Positions 11,259 to 58,799 of a stretch of DNA of 64,000 nt are shown piece after piece (positions within the stretch are counted from its first letter, which is position 1; the number at the start of each line of letters is the position of its first letter). Source of the stretch: Escherichia phage ECML-1; sequence record OL631478.1; one strand, written 5' to 3'. The notes below the pieces were generated by a model, which was given only the letters and a program-made list of their open reading frames with translations, ran no database searches and was not told the origin of the DNA. The position numbers and the translations under genes were made by a program.

Positions 11259-19277
<8,019 letters not shown>

Positions 19278-51826: not shown

Positions 51827-51839
51827 ACAGATACTATAA

Positions 51840-51867
51840 GGGGACTGTAAAGGTTCCCTTTTTATTT
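51840..51867 (+). terminator. Rho-independent terminator
   Basis: GGGGAC-TGTAAAG-GTTCCC hairpin (one G-U pair) followed by TTTTTATTTT. Confidence 0.55.
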
Positions 51868-51877
51868 TGGAGGTAAA

Positions 51878-52393
51878 ATGTATCTGTCAAACCTGAAACG
51901 TTCGGTTGCAATGTCAGTTCTAAGACTCAGCTTTGATGAGCGTCAAGAGTTTATAGACTCCCACAAATATGACCCTTCAAATTCTAATCACATGGTTCTT
52001 TGGAATCGTGATAACTTCCGTGAAAGAGCACTTGTCCGTTATTACCCACACTACACAATAGATAACCTGTATGAATGGTGTGTTGTGAAGAACACCATTG
52101 CAACACTGAACAATCTTTGCAGGTATACGGGTAAGCAAACATTTACATTAGGTCATCACAAACCTGTTACAAAAGGTGGTGAACATCACTGTGCAAACTG
52201 GTTTATCCAAACTAAAACTGATAACCAGAAGCAAGGAGATAGCCTCCTAAGTATCCCTAAGATGACCTATGAAGAGCAAGAGAAATATATCAAAAATAAT
52301 ATGCCAGATGTGCTTGACAACAACTATACAGATTTGGCAATATCTCTCCTGTTGAAGTTCGAGACAGTTTATAGGGCAACTTATAATGGCTAA
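51878..52393 (+). CDS. HNH endonuclease
   Basis: LGHHKPVTKGGEHHCANWFIQTKTDNQ matches HNH nuclease core. Confidence 0.55.
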   Translation: MYLSNLKRSVAMSVLRLSFDERQEFIDSHKYDPSNSNHMVLWNRDNFRERALVRYYPHYTIDNLYEWCVVKNTIATLNNLCRYTGKQTFTLGHHKPVTKGGEHHCANWFIQTKTDNQKQGDSLLSIPKMTYEEQEKYIKNNMPDVLDNNYTDLAISLLLKFETVYRATYNG

Positions 52394-52664
52394 AGAAAAG
52401 TGGGAGATTTTACCATTAGTCAGTGAAGGTGGTAATGGTTGTGAGATGTACATGATACGTGGTCATGTTCCAGAACCAATTGCACTTGAGATGGTAAACA
52501 ACTTTACAGATGGTTCTTACAAAGACTTAGGAGAGCCAACTATAAAGCATCAATGGGTAAAGCCTGTACCAGACAGCACAGGTAACTGTAGTGTACTTTA
52601 CCACGTTGTAGACCCTGTAAAATGCAAATCTGCAATGGCAGTAACAAACGTAACCTTTGATTGA
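52386..52664 (+). CDS. Hypothetical protein
   Basis: 92 aa ORF. Confidence 0.4.
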   Translation: MAKEKWEILPLVSEGGNGCEMYMIRGHVPEPIALEMVNNFTDGSYKDLGEPTIKHQWVKPVPDSTGNCSVLYHVVDPVKCKSAMAVTNVTFD

Positions 52665-52679
52665 GATAGAGAGAAAACT

Positions 52680-53561
52680 ATGAAAACTGTTATTGAAGCC
52701 GTCATCACCGCACAAGAGAAATTCTTCCACACAGAAAAATTTAATATCATCCAATTCCCATCTGGAGAAATTGGTGGAAACTTCTCTGAAGATTTTGTTA
52801 AGTTTGCTGAGCGTAATGCTGGTAAGATTGATAATGTTATATTTACTGTACAGGGGTATGACAAAGATACACTGTTTGCATTAGCTTTGGCTAAGGATGC
52901 CGTTGACAGTCTTGTTCCCCAGAAATCAGCGATGAAAACCGTTGTTTTCGGGTTCTTACCAAATGCTCGATATGACCGCCACATGTTCAAAGGTGATGCA
53001 GCAGCACTGAAAGTCTTTGCCAACCTTGTTAATGCAATGGGTTTTGATGCAGTATGTGCTCTTGACCCTCACAGTAATGTTGCAGAAAACTTATTTAAGT
53101 GTTTTCAGAGCATGAAGCAAAAAGATGTGGCAGTACACTTTGCAAGTGACCCACGCATTGATTTCTTAGTAGCCCCAGATGCAGGTGCAGCTAAGAAGAC
53201 TGAAGATGCCGCTAAAGAGGTAGATAAACCATATATCACAATGTCTAAGGTGCGCAATCTTAAGACTGGAGAAATCACTGGTATGCGAATCCTTGATGAT
53301 GTTGATTTGACAGATAAAACTGTCATGATTCTTGATGATATTTGTGATGGTGGTCGAACCTTCGTAGAAGCAGCGAAACATCTTCGTGAAGCAGGTGCAA
53401 AACGTGTGGAACTCTATGTAACACATGGTATCTTCTCTAAAGGTGTTGAAAACCTTCTTGACAATGGTATTGACCATATTTACACTACAAACTCTTTAGG
53501 CGAAGCTAAAGACCGTGGCTTAACACACTATGGTCAAGTTACTGTAGCAACCATTGATTAG
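52680..53561 (+). CDS. prs: Ribose-phosphate pyrophosphokinase (PRPP synthetase)-like protein; possibly ADP-ribose pyrophosphokinase of a NAD+ reconstitution pathway
   Basis: PRPP/phosphoribosyl-binding loop MILDDICDGGRTF; 293 aa; adjacent to NAMPT-like gene. Confidence 0.7.
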   Translation: MKTVIEAVITAQEKFFHTEKFNIIQFPSGEIGGNFSEDFVKFAERNAGKIDNVIFTVQGYDKDTLFALALAKDAVDSLVPQKSAMKTVVFGFLPNARYDRHMFKGDAAALKVFANLVNAMGFDAVCALDPHSNVAENLFKCFQSMKQKDVAVHFASDPRIDFLVAPDAGAAKKTEDAAKEVDKPYITMSKVRNLKTGEITGMRILDDVDLTDKTVMILDDICDGGRTFVEAAKHLREAGAKRVELYVTHGIFSKGVENLLDNGIDHIYTTNSLGEAKDRGLTHYGQVTVATID

Positions 53562-53569
53562 GTAACAGT

Positions 53570-54061
53570 ATGAATAAGGGTTATTTTGAAAAATACCTAA
53601 TATATGAACCAGATACAGGTTTATTAATTTGGAGAGTAACCCTTTGCAGTACCGCTATTGCTGGTAATGTGGCTGGCACAAGGTCTAAGAAGGGTTATAT
53701 CCAAGTCCAGATAAATAAGAATAGGTACTATGCACATAATATTGCATGGATTATGTCTGGAGGTGAGATACCAAGTGGATATGAGATAGACCACATAGAC
53801 CTTGATAAAGCTAATAATAAGTTGGAGAACTTAAGACTTAGCACAAAGTCACAAAATCAGAGGAATAGAGGTATATACAAGAATAATAAAACTGGTGTGA
53901 AGGGTGTAAGTTTTTGTAAACAAACAGGTCTTTACAAAGCAAGAGTCACGCTTTACCATAAAGAATACTTTTGTGGAAGATTTAAAACGGTAGAAGAAGC
54001 AAAAGAAGCTGTAATTAAAAAGCGAATAGAACTTCATGGTGAGTTTGCAAGACATAACTAA
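53570..54061 (+). CDS. HNH homing endonuclease with AP2-like domain (second paralog)
   Basis: YAHNIAW...EIDHIDLDKANNKLENL and NKTGVKGVSF...LHGEFA; parallels 40659..41174. Confidence 0.65.
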   Translation: MNKGYFEKYLIYEPDTGLLIWRVTLCSTAIAGNVAGTRSKKGYIQVQINKNRYYAHNIAWIMSGGEIPSGYEIDHIDLDKANNKLENLRLSTKSQNQRNRGIYKNNKTGVKGVSFCKQTGLYKARVTLYHKEYFCGRFKTVEEAKEAVIKKRIELHGEFARHN

Positions 54062-54075
54062 GAGAGAGATAAAAT

Positions 54076-55857
54076 ATGAGTAAGTCACTTTACGCAGTAC
54101 CAGCAGGTCTTAATGCAGATGCTTACAAGGCATCACATATATATCAGTATCCAGATGCTACGCAATATCTTATGTTGAACCTGACACCACGTAGTGACAA
54201 ATGGTTTAACAGTCCATTAGCAATTGATGGTGTAGTCGCTTTTGGTATTCAACGTTTTGTTAAAGATTACTTGATAGACCACTGGAATGCCACCTTCTTT
54301 GAACGTGACAAAAAAGAAGCAATTGACGAAATCTTAGAAGTCATGAACGGTGTTCTGGGCAAAGATGCTATTGGTCGAGAGCATTGGGAAGCACTTCACG
54401 ACTTAGGTTATCTGCCAGTCGAAGTATACGCTGTAGAAGAAGGCACAGTTGTTCCTATGCGTGTCCCAATGATTGTCTTCCAGAACACTGTTTCAGGTTT
54501 CCATTGGGTAGCAGGTTATCTGGAAGATGCTTTCTCTGCTGAGATTTGGAAGGCTTGCACTATTGCAACTATTGCATTGCATTACAAACGCATCTGTAAG
54601 AAGTGGGCTGACCTTACTTGTGACAACGACTTGCATCTGCCCTATCAGTGTCATGACTTTGCTATGCGTGGTATGTCAGGCTTTACTGATGACGCATTTA
54701 ATGCTGTAGGTCACTTAACCAGCTTTAAAGGGACTGATAGCTTCCCTGCTGTATACACGGCTAAACGAATCTATGGACAGTCCTACCCAATCTCTGATAT
54801 TGGTAGTTCTGTACCAGCCACTGAGCACTCTGTAATGTGTGCAAACATTGCTTGGGAAGGTGGTAATGAGTTGATTGAAGAAGAAAGACGCTTTAAAGGT
54901 GAGTTACAAACCTTCCGTCGTTTCTTAACAGAAACTTACCCAACAGGTATTGCAAGCATTGTTTCAGATACTTATAACTTCTGGAGAACTGTGTCAGAAA
55001 TCTTACCAGCACTTCGTAAAGAAATTATGGAACGTGATGGCAAACTGGTAATTCGCCCTGACTCTGGAGACCCTGTACATATTGTCACAGGTTATAAAGC
55101 AATCCACTTAGAATGTGCTAAGAAGGCTTATTACGAGCACCTAAGCAAGCTGGAAGCCAGTGACACAATGTTGAATGCTGTTCTGAACATGAAGCTTGAG
55201 AACATCAACTATGGTATTGCTGGATGGCTACTGTCAGAAGGCTACGAGATGGTTGTTGACAGAGAAGACTTTGAAGTTGCTGATACAGTGATGTTGAAAA
55301 ATGCTTATATGGTTGGTTCTGCAAACGTTGTAACACGTCCTGTAGCTGAGATTGATGGAGCTATTAAGACACTGTACAACATCTTTGGGGGAACTATTAA
55401 CTCTAAAGGCTTTAAAGTACTGGATGAGCATATTGGACTTATTTATGGCGACTCTATCACGTTGGAACGTGCAAATGAAATACTGAAGCGTTTGTATGAA
55501 ATGGGTTTTGCAAGCTCTAACGTAGTGTTTGGTGTAGGTTCTTACACTTACCAGTACATGACTCGTGACACCTTTGCATTTGCTGTCAAAGCAACCCTTG
55601 CAAGCATTGGTGGTAAAGAGATTATGCTTGCAAAAGACCCTAAAACAGATAGTGGTGTTAAGAAGTCTGCTTTTGGTGGTGTAGCACCTATGTGGGATGG
55701 TGAAAATCTGAAAGCTGTAGATGGCTATGGGTTCCAGAGCTTTGCAGATGCACTTGAACATCCAGCTTGTGCTTTACGTCTAGTCTTTAGCGACTCTGAG
55801 CAGTTCGGCTACACAACTCTTGGTGATATTCGAAATAATATTGACAAGCAGCTTTAA
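54076..55857 (+). CDS. nadV: Nicotinamide phosphoribosyltransferase (NAMPT/NadV)-like protein
   Basis: VIRPDSGDP and IYGDSITLERA motifs typical of NAMPT/NAPRTase family; 593 aa (longer than typical ~480 aa). Confidence 0.75.
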   Translation: MSKSLYAVPAGLNADAYKASHIYQYPDATQYLMLNLTPRSDKWFNSPLAIDGVVAFGIQRFVKDYLIDHWNATFFERDKKEAIDEILEVMNGVLGKDAIGREHWEALHDLGYLPVEVYAVEEGTVVPMRVPMIVFQNTVSGFHWVAGYLEDAFSAEIWKACTIATIALHYKRICKKWADLTCDNDLHLPYQCHDFAMRGMSGFTDDAFNAVGHLTSFKGTDSFPAVYTAKRIYGQSYPISDIGSSVPATEHSVMCANIAWEGGNELIEEERRFKGELQTFRRFLTETYPTGIASIVSDTYNFWRTVSEILPALRKEIMERDGKLVIRPDSGDPVHIVTGYKAIHLECAKKAYYEHLSKLEASDTMLNAVLNMKLENINYGIAGWLLSEGYEMVVDREDFEVADTVMLKNAYMVGSANVVTRPVAEIDGAIKTLYNIFGGTINSKGFKVLDEHIGLIYGDSITLERANEILKRLYEMGFASSNVVFGVGSYTYQYMTRDTFAFAVKATLASIGGKEIMLAKDPKTDSGVKKSAFGGVAPMWDGENLKAVDGYGFQSFADALEHPACALRLVFSDSEQFGYTTLGDIRNNIDKQL

Positions 55858-55871
55858 AAGTATATGATAAG

Positions 55872-55893
55872 AGGCTCCTACGGGAGCCTTTTT
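55872..55893 (+). terminator. Rho-independent terminator
   Basis: AGGCTCC-TACG-GGAGCCT hairpin followed by TTTTT. Confidence 0.6.
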
Positions 55894-56432: not shown

Positions 56433-58799
56433 ATGCGCATGGTAAACGACCACGCAGAAGTGATTAAGAGTTCAACTTCTTTAGAGACGTCTCAAGCACA
56501 GATTACAATGACACCTGAGATGTTCAGCCTTTTGAGTTCTGGTGTATATACCTTTAAAGAAAGGGCAGTGATTCGTGAACTGTCATGTAACGCAGTAGAT
56601 GCTCAGAAAGAAGCTGGAAAAGAGAACATCCCATTCCATGTGCATTTACCTACTCGTTTTGAGCCTTACTTCGAAGTTCGTGATTTTGGAACTGGATTGA
56701 CTCATGATAAAGTTATGAGTTTGTACCTAAACTATGGAGCTTCTACGAAGAATGACTCTAATGACTACATTGGTGCAATGGGTATCGGCTCAAAGTCACC
56801 ATTTGCAATTGCTCAGTCATTCACAGTATCTAGCTATGTTGATGGTGTTGTTAATAAGTACTCTGTTTATCTTGAGAATGGTATCCCTCAAGTAACTAAG
56901 CTGACAACTAACCCAACAAAAGAACCTAATGGTTTAGCTGTACGTGTGGCGGTTGCTGACCACCGTATCTCAAAGTTCTTTGAAGAAGCTGGGAATGTGT
57001 ACTCATACTTCACTGTAAAACCAGAAAGTAATATTGAGTACGACGATGTATTAGCAGATATGAACGTCATTGCCCGTGAAGAAGGTGTTTATGATGCCAT
57101 GATTCATAAGCACAGCTGGCGTTCTAGTGATAACAGGACAGAGTTTAATGTGGTGATGGGTAACATTGCCTACCCTGTTAACATGGAAGCATTACTTGGT
57201 GATGATTTCTTCAAAGTATTGCCAGAATTTTTCCGTAGGAGCGTAGACCTTGTAAACATCTACATGCCTATTGGTTCAGTCGCTATTGCAGCTTCTCGTG
57301 AAGCATTGCAGATGAATGACACGACAAAAAATGTTATCATTGAGGCTACTAAAAAGATAACTGAAGCAATTACAAAGGATGTTATCAAGAAAGTTAACAG
57401 TCAACCTACACTCATGGATGCTGCACAGGCTTATGCTGAGTTACGTTTGAACTCACGAGAGATGTTTAATGCTGTGTGTCCAAAGTTAGAGTGGGGAGGC
57501 GTTAAGCTTGATTCTCTGGAAGAAGAATTACTAAACATTCGTCGTGGAATTATCTACGCAGAAGACGGCTCAGTCATTTATGAACGTGACGGTAAAGGTA
57601 ATATTAAGGTTGATAGGAACGGAAACAACATCCCTAAAGTAGATTATCTTTATGACCCAGTTGCTTATGTCAAGTTCAACTCTTTAGAGAGTAAGATTCG
57701 TGCAACAGCACTTTCCTACACTCAAGAGGCAAGTATGTTCAATATCTTTGGCGCAATGCGTAAAAGCCAAATTGAACAGTTTTTGTTTGTTATAAATGAC
57801 CGTCGCAATAAAAATGGTACTGAGAAGACTGTAGGACGCAACCAAATCTTGCGTGGTGCATGTCGAGACTATGCCAGTGAGTCAAGTCTGTTTCACAGAT
57901 ACAATGGTATTGTCTTTGTATTCTCGACTGAAAAAGAGTTAGATGACTTAATCAATCTGCACAAACTTGATAAAAGCTTGTTAAAGATTGTGAAAATGTC
58001 TGATAAGGAACACCATTACCAGCGTAAAGAAGCTGTAAGAGGTGTTGTAAAACTCTGGAAAGCTGTTCCAGCAGAAGGTGTAGCTTCCTATAAAGAGGTT
58101 TCAGAGGACTTTGATACAATTGAAGAGCCTCAGCTTTACATTAAGGCAGTTGGTGATACAGTTGATGGTAGATGTTTTTGCTCATCTCCAGAAGATGTAG
58201 CTAAGTCAGTTGCTAATGTTACAGGTAAGACAGTCTATGTTTTCCGAAAAGCAAATTGGAAAAAGATACCAGAAGATTGGATTGAAGTAGATGAGAAACT
58301 CTTGAACGACAGCTTAACTGATGTTCACTGGATTAACCATAACAGATATATGACGCGTATCTATATGAATGGTGTCCTTGACCTTACAAGCAGTTGGATT
58401 ATTGCCAGAAACTTTACGTTTAATAACAGGAAGATTTCTCGCGGGTATTGTTATTCAAGGGATACTATTAAGACAATCTTCTTAGAAGGGAATGAAGATG
58501 CTGTTGAGGCAATGTTTGGTAAGATTCAGTATGTGGCTGCACCGTTTGCATACACTTACACTATCAGTGTTCTTCAGGATTTGAAGTCATGCCTTGATAA
58601 TGACACAAAACTGTACAAAAAGATTAAGAAAGCAGGTGACCGCATGGTTATCAAGCTGACAAACTATCTTTCAAAAAGAAAACAAGAAAACTTCTTGCTT
58701 TCACACTTAGATTGGAATAAAGTATCACCTATCGAAGTGAGTAAGTTTTTAGGCTTTGATGTGAAGTGTGTTCCAGAAGGGACTACAATTTACGATTAA
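56433..58799 (+). CDS. rIIA: rIIA-like protein
   Basis: N-terminal region FSLLSSGVYTFKERAVIRELSCNAVDA resembles T4 rIIA N-terminus (from memory); 788 aa; followed by rIIB-like gene. Confidence 0.65.
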   Translation: MRMVNDHAEVIKSSTSLETSQAQITMTPEMFSLLSSGVYTFKERAVIRELSCNAVDAQKEAGKENIPFHVHLPTRFEPYFEVRDFGTGLTHDKVMSLYLNYGASTKNDSNDYIGAMGIGSKSPFAIAQSFTVSSYVDGVVNKYSVYLENGIPQVTKLTTNPTKEPNGLAVRVAVADHRISKFFEEAGNVYSYFTVKPESNIEYDDVLADMNVIAREEGVYDAMIHKHSWRSSDNRTEFNVVMGNIAYPVNMEALLGDDFFKVLPEFFRRSVDLVNIYMPIGSVAIAASREALQMNDTTKNVIIEATKKITEAITKDVIKKVNSQPTLMDAAQAYAELRLNSREMFNAVCPKLEWGGVKLDSLEEELLNIRRGIIYAEDGSVIYERDGKGNIKVDRNGNNIPKVDYLYDPVAYVKFNSLESKIRATALSYTQEASMFNIFGAMRKSQIEQFLFVINDRRNKNGTEKTVGRNQILRGACRDYASESSLFHRYNGIVFVFSTEKELDDLINLHKLDKSLLKIVKMSDKEHHYQRKEAVRGVVKLWKAVPAEGVASYKEVSEDFDTIEEPQLYIKAVGDTVDGRCFCSSPEDVAKSVANVTGKTVYVFRKANWKKIPEDWIEVDEKLLNDSLTDVHWINHNRYMTRIYMNGVLDLTSSWIIARNFTFNNRKISRGYCYSRDTIKTIFLEGNEDAVEAMFGKIQYVAAPFAYTYTISVLQDLKSCLDNDTKLYKKIKKAGDRMVIKLTNYLSKRKQENFLLSHLDWNKVSPIEVSKFLGFDVKCVPEGTTIYD

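Follow-up and report, generated by a model that had tools for sequence, protein, structure and literature searches.

A probable NARP1 NAD+ reconstitution pair in Escherichia phage ECML-1, with a putative HNH homing endonuclease gene between its two genes

Introduction

NARP1, a nicotinamide adenine dinucleotide (NAD+) reconstitution pathway made up of the two enzymes Adps and Namat, was discovered in 'genes 79-80' of Bas63 (JohannRWettstein), a BASEL phage of the genus Felixounavirus (bioRxiv 10.1101/2024.02.11.579819). Here we compare that gene pair with a locus of Escherichia phage ECML-1 (sequence record OL631478.1), which was analysed as one stretch of 64,000 nucleotides (nt), called the window throughout. 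The locus has a gene for a protein like the ribose-phosphate pyrophosphokinase Prs, a gene for an HNH endonuclease and a gene for a protein like the nicotinamide phosphoribosyltransferase Nampt, in that order (Table 1). The first and the last of these are very probably the adps and namat genes of a NARP1 pair, and the gene between them a homing endonuclease gene that stands outside the pathway.

The authors of the Bas63 study found that deleting genes 79-80 lowered plating on the SIR2-HerA defence system about 20-fold and deepened the loss of NAD+, that the effect persisted in a pncC nadR double-deletion host, and that ADP-ribose pyrophosphate (ADPR-PP) was seen only with wild-type Bas63 together with the defence system. 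They also reported that Adps from SPbetaL1 pyrophosphorylates ADP-ribose, and that Namat converts ADPR-PP and nicotinamide to NAD+, with ADPR-PP preferred over phosphoribosyl pyrophosphate (PRPP) (bioRxiv 10.1101/2024.02.11.579819). Both reactions were followed in vitro with the SPbetaL1 enzymes, and Bas63 infection was followed by metabolomics. In an independent set of Bas63 knockouts, deleting g79 or g80 singly cost 1e4-1e6 in plating efficiency on Sir2-HerA, and the defects were complemented (10.1101/2024.10.10.617714). A Namat homologue stands beside adps in 97% of the genes of the Adps clade. Extended NARP1 operons carry either the Macro-domain phosphatase Adpp (NARP1-AP, which counters aRES) or the RyR-domain glycosidase RyDEP. 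The first account of NARP1, in a phage of the window's own genus, appeared in 2024 and has been followed by structural and genetic studies.

An initial annotation of the window, made from its letters and open reading frames (ORFs) alone, had proposed that the Prs-like and Nampt-like genes form an NAD+ reconstitution module split by a homing endonuclease. The present analysis covers gene structure, near-identity to the Bas63 genes, signature and catalytic residues, and the presence or absence of the HNH gene among related phages, while the chemistry and the anti-defence phenotype are taken from the literature.

Results

The pair is nearly identical to that of Bas63

All three ORFs are intact and co-oriented, with gaps of 8 nt between adps and the HNH gene and 14 nt between the HNH gene and namat. 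The adps stop codon and the namat start codon lie 514 nt apart on the same strand and the HNH gene is the only gene between them; ORFs, motifs and families all agree with the arrangement first proposed, and the family matches are much too strong to be due to chance. The adps product is identical to bas63_0079 at 287 of 293 residues (98%), and the namat product to bas63_0080 at 578 of 593 (97%), each at the same length and without gaps. This near-identity to the very pair in which NARP1 was found upholds the proposal of an NAD+ reconstitution module, and the copy in the window would be expected to do the same chemistry and the same anti-defence job as the copies of Bas63 and SPbetaL1.

The region matches 259 phage records, nearly all of them Felix O1-like myoviruses of Escherichia, Salmonella, Shigella and Citrobacter. 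The closest is phage ekra (96.5%), and the window is that of a Felixounavirus. Over the 24 kb at 40000-64000, identity to any record in the phage collection stays at about 95% or less, and this Felixounavirus lineage is therefore absent from that collection. An identical Namat (P0001 in our protein set) is encoded on Logan/ENA contigs, the longest of them 88.5 kb.

Adps sides with the phage enzymes

The adps product matches PHROG 619 'ribose-phosphate pyrophosphokinase' (2e-99) and TIGR01251 (1e-39, 136 bits). Among the NCBIfam models it passes this broad subfamily model (136 against a cut-off of 113) but misses every Prs equivalog cut-off widely (111 against 296 for NF002095 and 79 against 438 for NF002844), and the Prs subfamily model NF002320 as well (100 against 297). 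It is 33% identical to the biochemically tested Adps of SPbetaL1 (95 bits) and 28% identical to E. coli Prs (b1207; 65 bits). The profile comparison with bona fide Prs that the initial annotation had proposed as a check thus came out on the side of Adps, and the protein appears to group with the phage Adps clade and not with cellular Prs. Bas63 Adps is a founding member of that clade and was one query of its published analysis (bioRxiv 10.1101/2024.02.11.579819).

Two loops were compared residue by residue. The flexible loop keeps the lysine whose mutation in SPbetaL1 Adps (K162A) abolished activity. The phosphoribosyl-binding loop reads DDICDGGRT; in the Prs of E. coli, human and archaea the corresponding residues are DT(G/C)GT or ST(G)GT, so that the ribose-5-phosphate (R5P) loop of Prs, DDxx(D/S)T(G/C)GT, is not matched. 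The replacement of DT(G/C)GT by DGGRT may have a functional meaning. As a universal signature of Adps the loop was considered and rejected: it is DDICDGGRT in Ounavirinae, DDICDGGAT in PAK_P1, DDICDGAAS in ICP1 and DDLSSFGGT in SPbetaL1, so the replacement varies among Adps proteins. A sequence search found no solved Adps structure; its top matches were cellular Prs.

Namat carries the selectivity clamp

The namat product matches PHROG 448 (5e-202) and, in Pfam, NAPRTase (7e-35) and NAMPT_N (9e-6). Its top sequence matches in the PDB are the Namat crystal entries 9w5w/9w5x (1e-128), with human NAMPT at 1e-41. An AlphaFold2 model of the protein has a predicted local distance difference test score (pLDDT) of 92.6, and the closest structure to it is 9w5x, with a template modelling (TM) score of 0.95 on the target. 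The core residues F195, R198, D221, H251, R327 and D329 all fall in invariant columns of the alignment, and their counterparts in SPbetaL1 Namat are F189, R192, D215, the catalytic His, R306 and D308. The last two make catalytic and ribose contacts, and mutant data exist for R306 (PMC12774641).

Namat is set apart from Nampt by a selectivity clamp, which consists of a helix (SCH) with the motif GSXΦ1XΦ2XΦ3TRD and a variable loop (SCL); in the loop the adenine-stacking residue is an Arg, or else a Lys or Tyr comes before the stacking residue, and Bas63 Namat is the Lys-type example (PMC12774641). The helix signature is present in the window protein and is kept in 44 of 44 aligned homologues. 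In the loop, K42-W43 is the kind of pair from which adenine stacking would be predicted.

Homologues of 496 residues that are 46-48% identical to the window Namat occur on chromosomal, megabase-scale contigs of Klebsiella, Cronobacter, Phytobacter and Kosakonia (P0069, P0072, P0087, P0100 and P0108), with the motif GS[YF]TYQYNTRD. They fit the bacterial NARP1 homologues mentioned in PMC12774641.

The initial annotation called the 593-residue Namat unusually long. It is long compared with the crystallised SPbetaL1 Namat of 491 residues, because of two insertions, but 593 residues is the usual length in this phage group, including Bas63, which shares both insertions. The larger one, of about 85 residues, begins directly after the RPDSGDP strand and was modelled as a compact, small alpha/beta unit, with a pLDDT of 93-96 in the context of the protein and of 86.6 when folded alone (predicted TM score 0.77). 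By tblastn it is confined to 253 Ounavirinae-type records. The homologues of other enterobacterial myophages (Yersinia P778 and Pectobacterium Arno162) have length variants of 79-105 residues that share a conserved EG-YEMVV core, and the insert of PAK_P1 at this position is shorter. No solved structural relative of the insertion domain was found, and the published structural work on Namat does not discuss it.

A canonical salvage pair accounts poorly for the data

The locus could instead be a canonical salvage pair, in which the first enzyme makes PRPP from R5P, the second makes nicotinamide mononucleotide (NMN) from PRPP and nicotinamide, and the host enzymes NadR/PncC finish the NAD+. The names in the databases are Prs and NadV/Nampt throughout, as in classical annotation, TIGR01251 is passed at the subfamily level, and Namat is able to turn PRPP into NMN in vitro (PMC12774641). 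Yet Bas63, whose genes are 97-98% identical, beats SIR2-HerA in the pncC nadR double-deletion host and makes ADPR-PP; SPbetaL1 Adps gave no product in the R5P/PRPP test; and Namat made only NAD+ when both donors were offered. The window proteins themselves point the same way: its Namat has the adenine-clamp motif, which Nampt lacks, and its Adps misses all Prs equivalog thresholds about threefold or more. We consider canonical salvage very improbable as the function of this pair. The earlier caveat that sequence cannot tell a Prs/NadV pair from an NAD+ reconstitution module was too cautious, because near-identity to tested genes, the Namat clamp motif and the failure against the Prs equivalogs all discriminate between the two.

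The middle gene looks like a mobile HNH gene

The protein encoded between adps and namat matches Pfam HNH_3 (6e-19; 67.9 bits against a cut-off of 24.8), PHROG 99 (7e-67) and 18 PHROG HNH families in all. At this point the window exceeds Bas63 by about 470 bases, which take the place of a 45-nt spacer with a hairpin, GGGGCUUGAAAGCCCC. The 45-nt spacer is found in 5/5 HNH-free genomes (Bas63, momo, IME338, Alf5 and HY02). The HNH gene occurs in 61 records, compared with about 250 that carry adps/namat, and always between these two genes; the records were counted by megablast, by which more diverged copies would be missed. Its carriers span three genera, with Felix O1 (ORF128), Moogle (Mooglevirus) and phiSUSP1 (Suspvirus) as examples, and its nucleotide identity to the Moogle and SUSP1 copies is 85-95%, compared with 60-88% for the flanks.

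Among seven genomes with the gene and five without it, the inserted segment starts at the adps stop codon and ends shortly before the ribosome-binding site of namat, and the fixed differences between the two groups are the adps stop codon (TAG with the gene, TGA without), the spacer and namat codon 2. Because of this polymorphism and of the conservation above that of the flanks, the middle gene fits a free-standing, mobile HNH homing endonuclease gene and not a pathway component, and its product is presumably an active endonuclease. The 'HNH-AP2 homing endonuclease' of the initial annotation is supported by the HNH_3 match, the single site of the polymorphism with its sharp boundaries and the conservation above the flanks; the candidate AP2-like DNA-binding region gave a weak AP2 match, of 21.2 bits under a Pfam cut-off of 33.3. 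Since the gene sits in an intergenic spacer, the module is split in the sense that the operon is interrupted, but no gene is.

Identity to Bas63 is low directly 3' of the HNH gene (71-77% over 54029-54228). A co-conversion tract or immunity variant strictly tied to the HNH gene was considered for this and rejected: the HNH-free phages momo and IME338 carry the namat 5' allele of the window.

The spacer hairpin GGGGCUUGAAAGCCCC is GC-rich and conserved in HNH-free phages, with a folding energy of -11.5 kcal/mol, and genomes with the HNH gene at this place lack it; the Bas63 copy lies at 15638-15653 of our record L005. It may serve in RNA stability or attenuation, or may be the target of the endonuclease.

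Two relatives that carry the HNH gene have an apparently damaged NARP1. The namat of ekra (record L011, near 2575) has gained 2 bp (AT) near codon 21; in ST11 (record L016, 2046-4895) adps is truncated and namat is split. These lesions may be pseudogenes or sequencing errors.

The three genes are probably one transcription unit

Two terminator-like hairpins, both also present in Bas63, bracket a unit of five ORFs. The downstream one has a folding energy of -16.6 kcal/mol (z -4.05), and 0/200 shuffled sequences were equally stable. Pattern scans of the stretch from adps to namat picked up no terminator-like site, and the ribosome-binding region of namat, GAGAGAGA, is kept despite the HNH insertion. 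From these features adps, the HNH gene and namat would be co-transcribed between the two terminators.

These features bear on the possibility that the HNH insertion crippled the module, through a polar effect or by decay, and left the two genes as relics in this phage. The lesions in ekra and ST11 are in line with it, though they are perhaps sequencing errors. In the window, though, both ORFs have full length and all catalytic and signature residues, the stretch between adps and namat has no terminator-like site and the namat ribosome-binding region is retained; moreover, the same order of three genes is found in 61 records from three genera, Felix O1 included. A relic module seems to us a shade less probable even than canonical salvage.

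A role for the middle gene as a third working part of NARP1, in an extended form like those with Adpp or RyDEP, can be given almost no weight: accessory genes inside NARP1 operons are documented and the gene is tightly packed (8 nt past the adps stop, 14 nt before the namat start), but its product is an HNH_3 endonuclease matching 18 PHROG HNH families with no Macro or RyR domain, the gene is absent from Bas63, where two genes suffice, and its presence/absence pattern and conservation above the flanks are traits of a mobile element.

Table 1. Features of the NARP1 locus in the ECML-1 window (positions are those of the window; aa, amino acids)
Feature	Position	Strand	Details
Terminator-like hairpin, likely 5' boundary of the unit	51838..51860	+	9-bp stem followed by a T run; -11.9 kcal/mol, z -2.3
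171-aa ORF, ortholog of bas63_0077, neighbour in the unit outside NARP1	51878..52393	+	89% aa identity; PHROG 3500
92-aa ORF, ortholog of bas63_0078, overlapping the 171-aa ORF	52386..52664	+	PHROG 4726
adps (Prs-like) ORF	52680-53561	+	293 aa
Adps flexible-loop motif SKVRN	53244..53258	+	K190 aligns with SPbetaL1 K162 (in GHKQRN)
Adps phosphoribosyl-binding loop MILDDICDGGRTF	53325..53363	+	aa 216-228
HNH gene ORF	53570-54061	+	163 aa
namat (Nampt-like) ORF	54076-55857	+	593 aa
Selectivity-clamp loop (SCL) region TPRSDKWF	54184..54207	+	K42-W43 identical to Bas63 Namat
Short Namat insertion	54853..54900	+	aa ~260-275, relative to SPbetaL1 Namat
VIRPDSGDP motif in namat	55048..55074	+	aa 325-333
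~85-aa Namat insertion domain	55093..55356	+	aa ~340-427; absent from crystallised Namat and from Nampt
Selectivity-clamp helix (SCH) GSYTYQYMTRD	55537..55569	+	aa 488-498; Y490 and Y494 aromatic
Intrinsic-terminator-like hairpin, 3' boundary of the unit	55869..55892	+	11 nt past the namat stop codon

Two adps alleles occur among Felixounavirus genomes

Felixounavirus genomes have two deeply diverged alleles of adps. The divergence covers about 52628-53228 in window positions, that is, adps codons 1 to about 180, where nucleotide identity between the alleles is 60-78%, compared with 93-99% in the flanks and the rest of the genomes. Allele A is carried by the window, Bas63, ekra, FelixO1, momo and IME338, and allele B by VSe11, Alf5 and HY02. 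A tblastn search with the window Adps found 39 records at 95% amino acid identity or more and 162 records at 60-80%. The split is independent of the presence of the HNH gene.

Neighbouring genes

The 171-residue ORF upstream of adps has no match in Pfam and only a weak match to a PHROG HNH endonuclease; its Bas63 ortholog, gp77, was found in a knockout screen to counter retron Ec67 and is described as GIY-YIG. A Pfam scan of the 92-residue ORF gave no match. PADLOC reported only weak phosphoribosyltransferase-domain and generic homing-endonuclease matches in the region. Downstream, a 788-residue ORF at 56433-58799 corresponds to Bas63 gene 84 (rIIA). The knockout screen that reported gp77 also found that Bas63 g84 and g85 counter the qatABCD defence. 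The segment between about 51.8 and 60 kb thus resembles a cluster of anti-defence genes.

The Macro domain of Adpp and the RyR/R12 domain of RyDEP were absent from the middle gene and from the four upstream and two downstream ORFs scanned, which makes this a plain two-enzyme NARP1. No gene for Nmnat, the NMN adenylyltransferase that NARP2 pairs with a Nampt using PRPP, was found among the scanned neighbours or in the Bas63 annotation from 38 to 87 kb; the window was not scanned for it gene by gene.

Discussion

If the pair works as it does in Bas63, a defence system that cleaves NAD+ (SIR2-HerA/Nezha, Thoeris, DSR1/2, SEFIR and similar) would leave ADP-ribose and nicotinamide. Adps would then use ATP to pyrophosphorylate ADP-ribose to ADPR-PP, and Namat would exchange the pyrophosphate of ADPR-PP for nicotinamide, which would give NAD+ directly, without the NMN salvage of the host. 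The HNH gene has taken the place of a short spacer with a hairpin, and its spread most likely depends on cleavage of alleles free of the endonuclease gene during co-infection.

Several points weigh against this account. The enzymes studied in vitro are the SPbetaL1 homologues (33% identity for Adps, in a local alignment, and 46% for Namat); the Bas63 enzymes were not purified, and the biochemistry of the window copy is carried over from these relatives. SPbetaL1 Namat, for which structure and kinetics are known, lacks the insertion of about 85 residues found in the window and Bas63 Namat. Namat enzymes keep a PRPP-to-NMN activity in vitro (PMC12774641), and the window Namat may have some such canonical activity too. 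Co-transcription is supported by consensus scans only. For the middle gene, the AP2 match stays under its cut-off, and a sequence search found no solved relative of the HNH protein.

The practical value of the result is in annotation. Hundreds of Felix O1-like genomes, among them therapeutic and diagnostic phages, still carry the labels of Prs/NadV salvage, and detection by adjacency can miss the operon because of the HNH gene within it. For a candidate phage, an intact NARP1 predicts resistance to NAD+-depleting defences of the SIR2, TIR and SEFIR types. Sensitivity to aRES-type systems is predicted because the Adpp phosphatase is not present; according to the aRES paper, two-enzyme NARP1 cannot use ADPR-1''-phosphate.

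Two minor points, the orphan insertion domain of Namat and the sharp dimorphism of adps, were not found described elsewhere, and they offer small, testable leads. It is conceivable, if rather unlikely, that the insertion is a functional add-on (for regulation, docking of a partner or altered handling of the substrate), or that the two adps alleles were selected by a host factor able to sense or target Adps. In either case the arms race over NAD+ would gain another layer.

Comparison with known systems

Cellular Prs (E. coli b1207) and Nampt (human, Xanthomonas, and NadV of Haemophilus ducreyi) share their folds and catalytic cores with the window proteins. They differ in that Namat has the aromatic adenine-clamp motif, and in the reported substrates, which are R5P and PRPP for the cellular enzymes and ADP-ribose and ADPR-PP for Adps and Namat.

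NARP1 of SPbetaL1 has the same logic of two enzymes, the same Namat fold (TM 0.95), the catalytic residues, the SCH signature and the Adps lysine. Identity to it is 29-33% for Adps and 46% for Namat, its Namat is without both insertions and uses Arg40 in the clamp loop where the window has K-W, its Adps loop is DDLSSFGGT and not DDICDGGRT, and its two genes abut, with no gene between them.

Free-standing HNH genes of T4-like and Felix O1-like phages, which are reported in variable numbers for Felixounavirus, resemble the middle gene as small ORFs wedged between conserved genes, polymorphic at one site and conserved above their neighbours. The locus differs from them in that no clean co-conversion tract can be defined here, and the namat 5' allele is not strictly linked to the HNH gene.

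In Felix O1 (NC_005282) the genes ORF127-ORF128-nadV have the same Prs-like/HNH/Nampt-like order, with 93.7% nucleotide identity over the whole module. That annotation dates from before NARP1 and names classical pyridine salvage (NadV); the HNH gene is 90% identical, and the spacer is 3 nt longer.

The closest described system is that of Bas63 (GenBank MZ501086). Bas63 has the 45-nt spacer with the GGGGCUUGAAAGCCCC hairpin where the window has the 492-bp HNH gene, its adps ends in TGA and not TAG, and its Namat has T and not S at residue 2 and a different allele at residues 19-34. It also has an extra gene, bas63_0081 (350 bp, L005 17507-17856), after namat, which the window does not have after 55908, and an extra 157 bp near bas63_0074 (L005 13075-13231), which the window does not have after 51159. 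Genus, genomic position, protein lengths, clamp motifs, both Namat insertions, flanking genes and terminators are all alike. The NARP1 of the window is thus one already known, an ortholog of the founding example, and annotation of the HNH gene at this site goes back to the Felix O1 genome.

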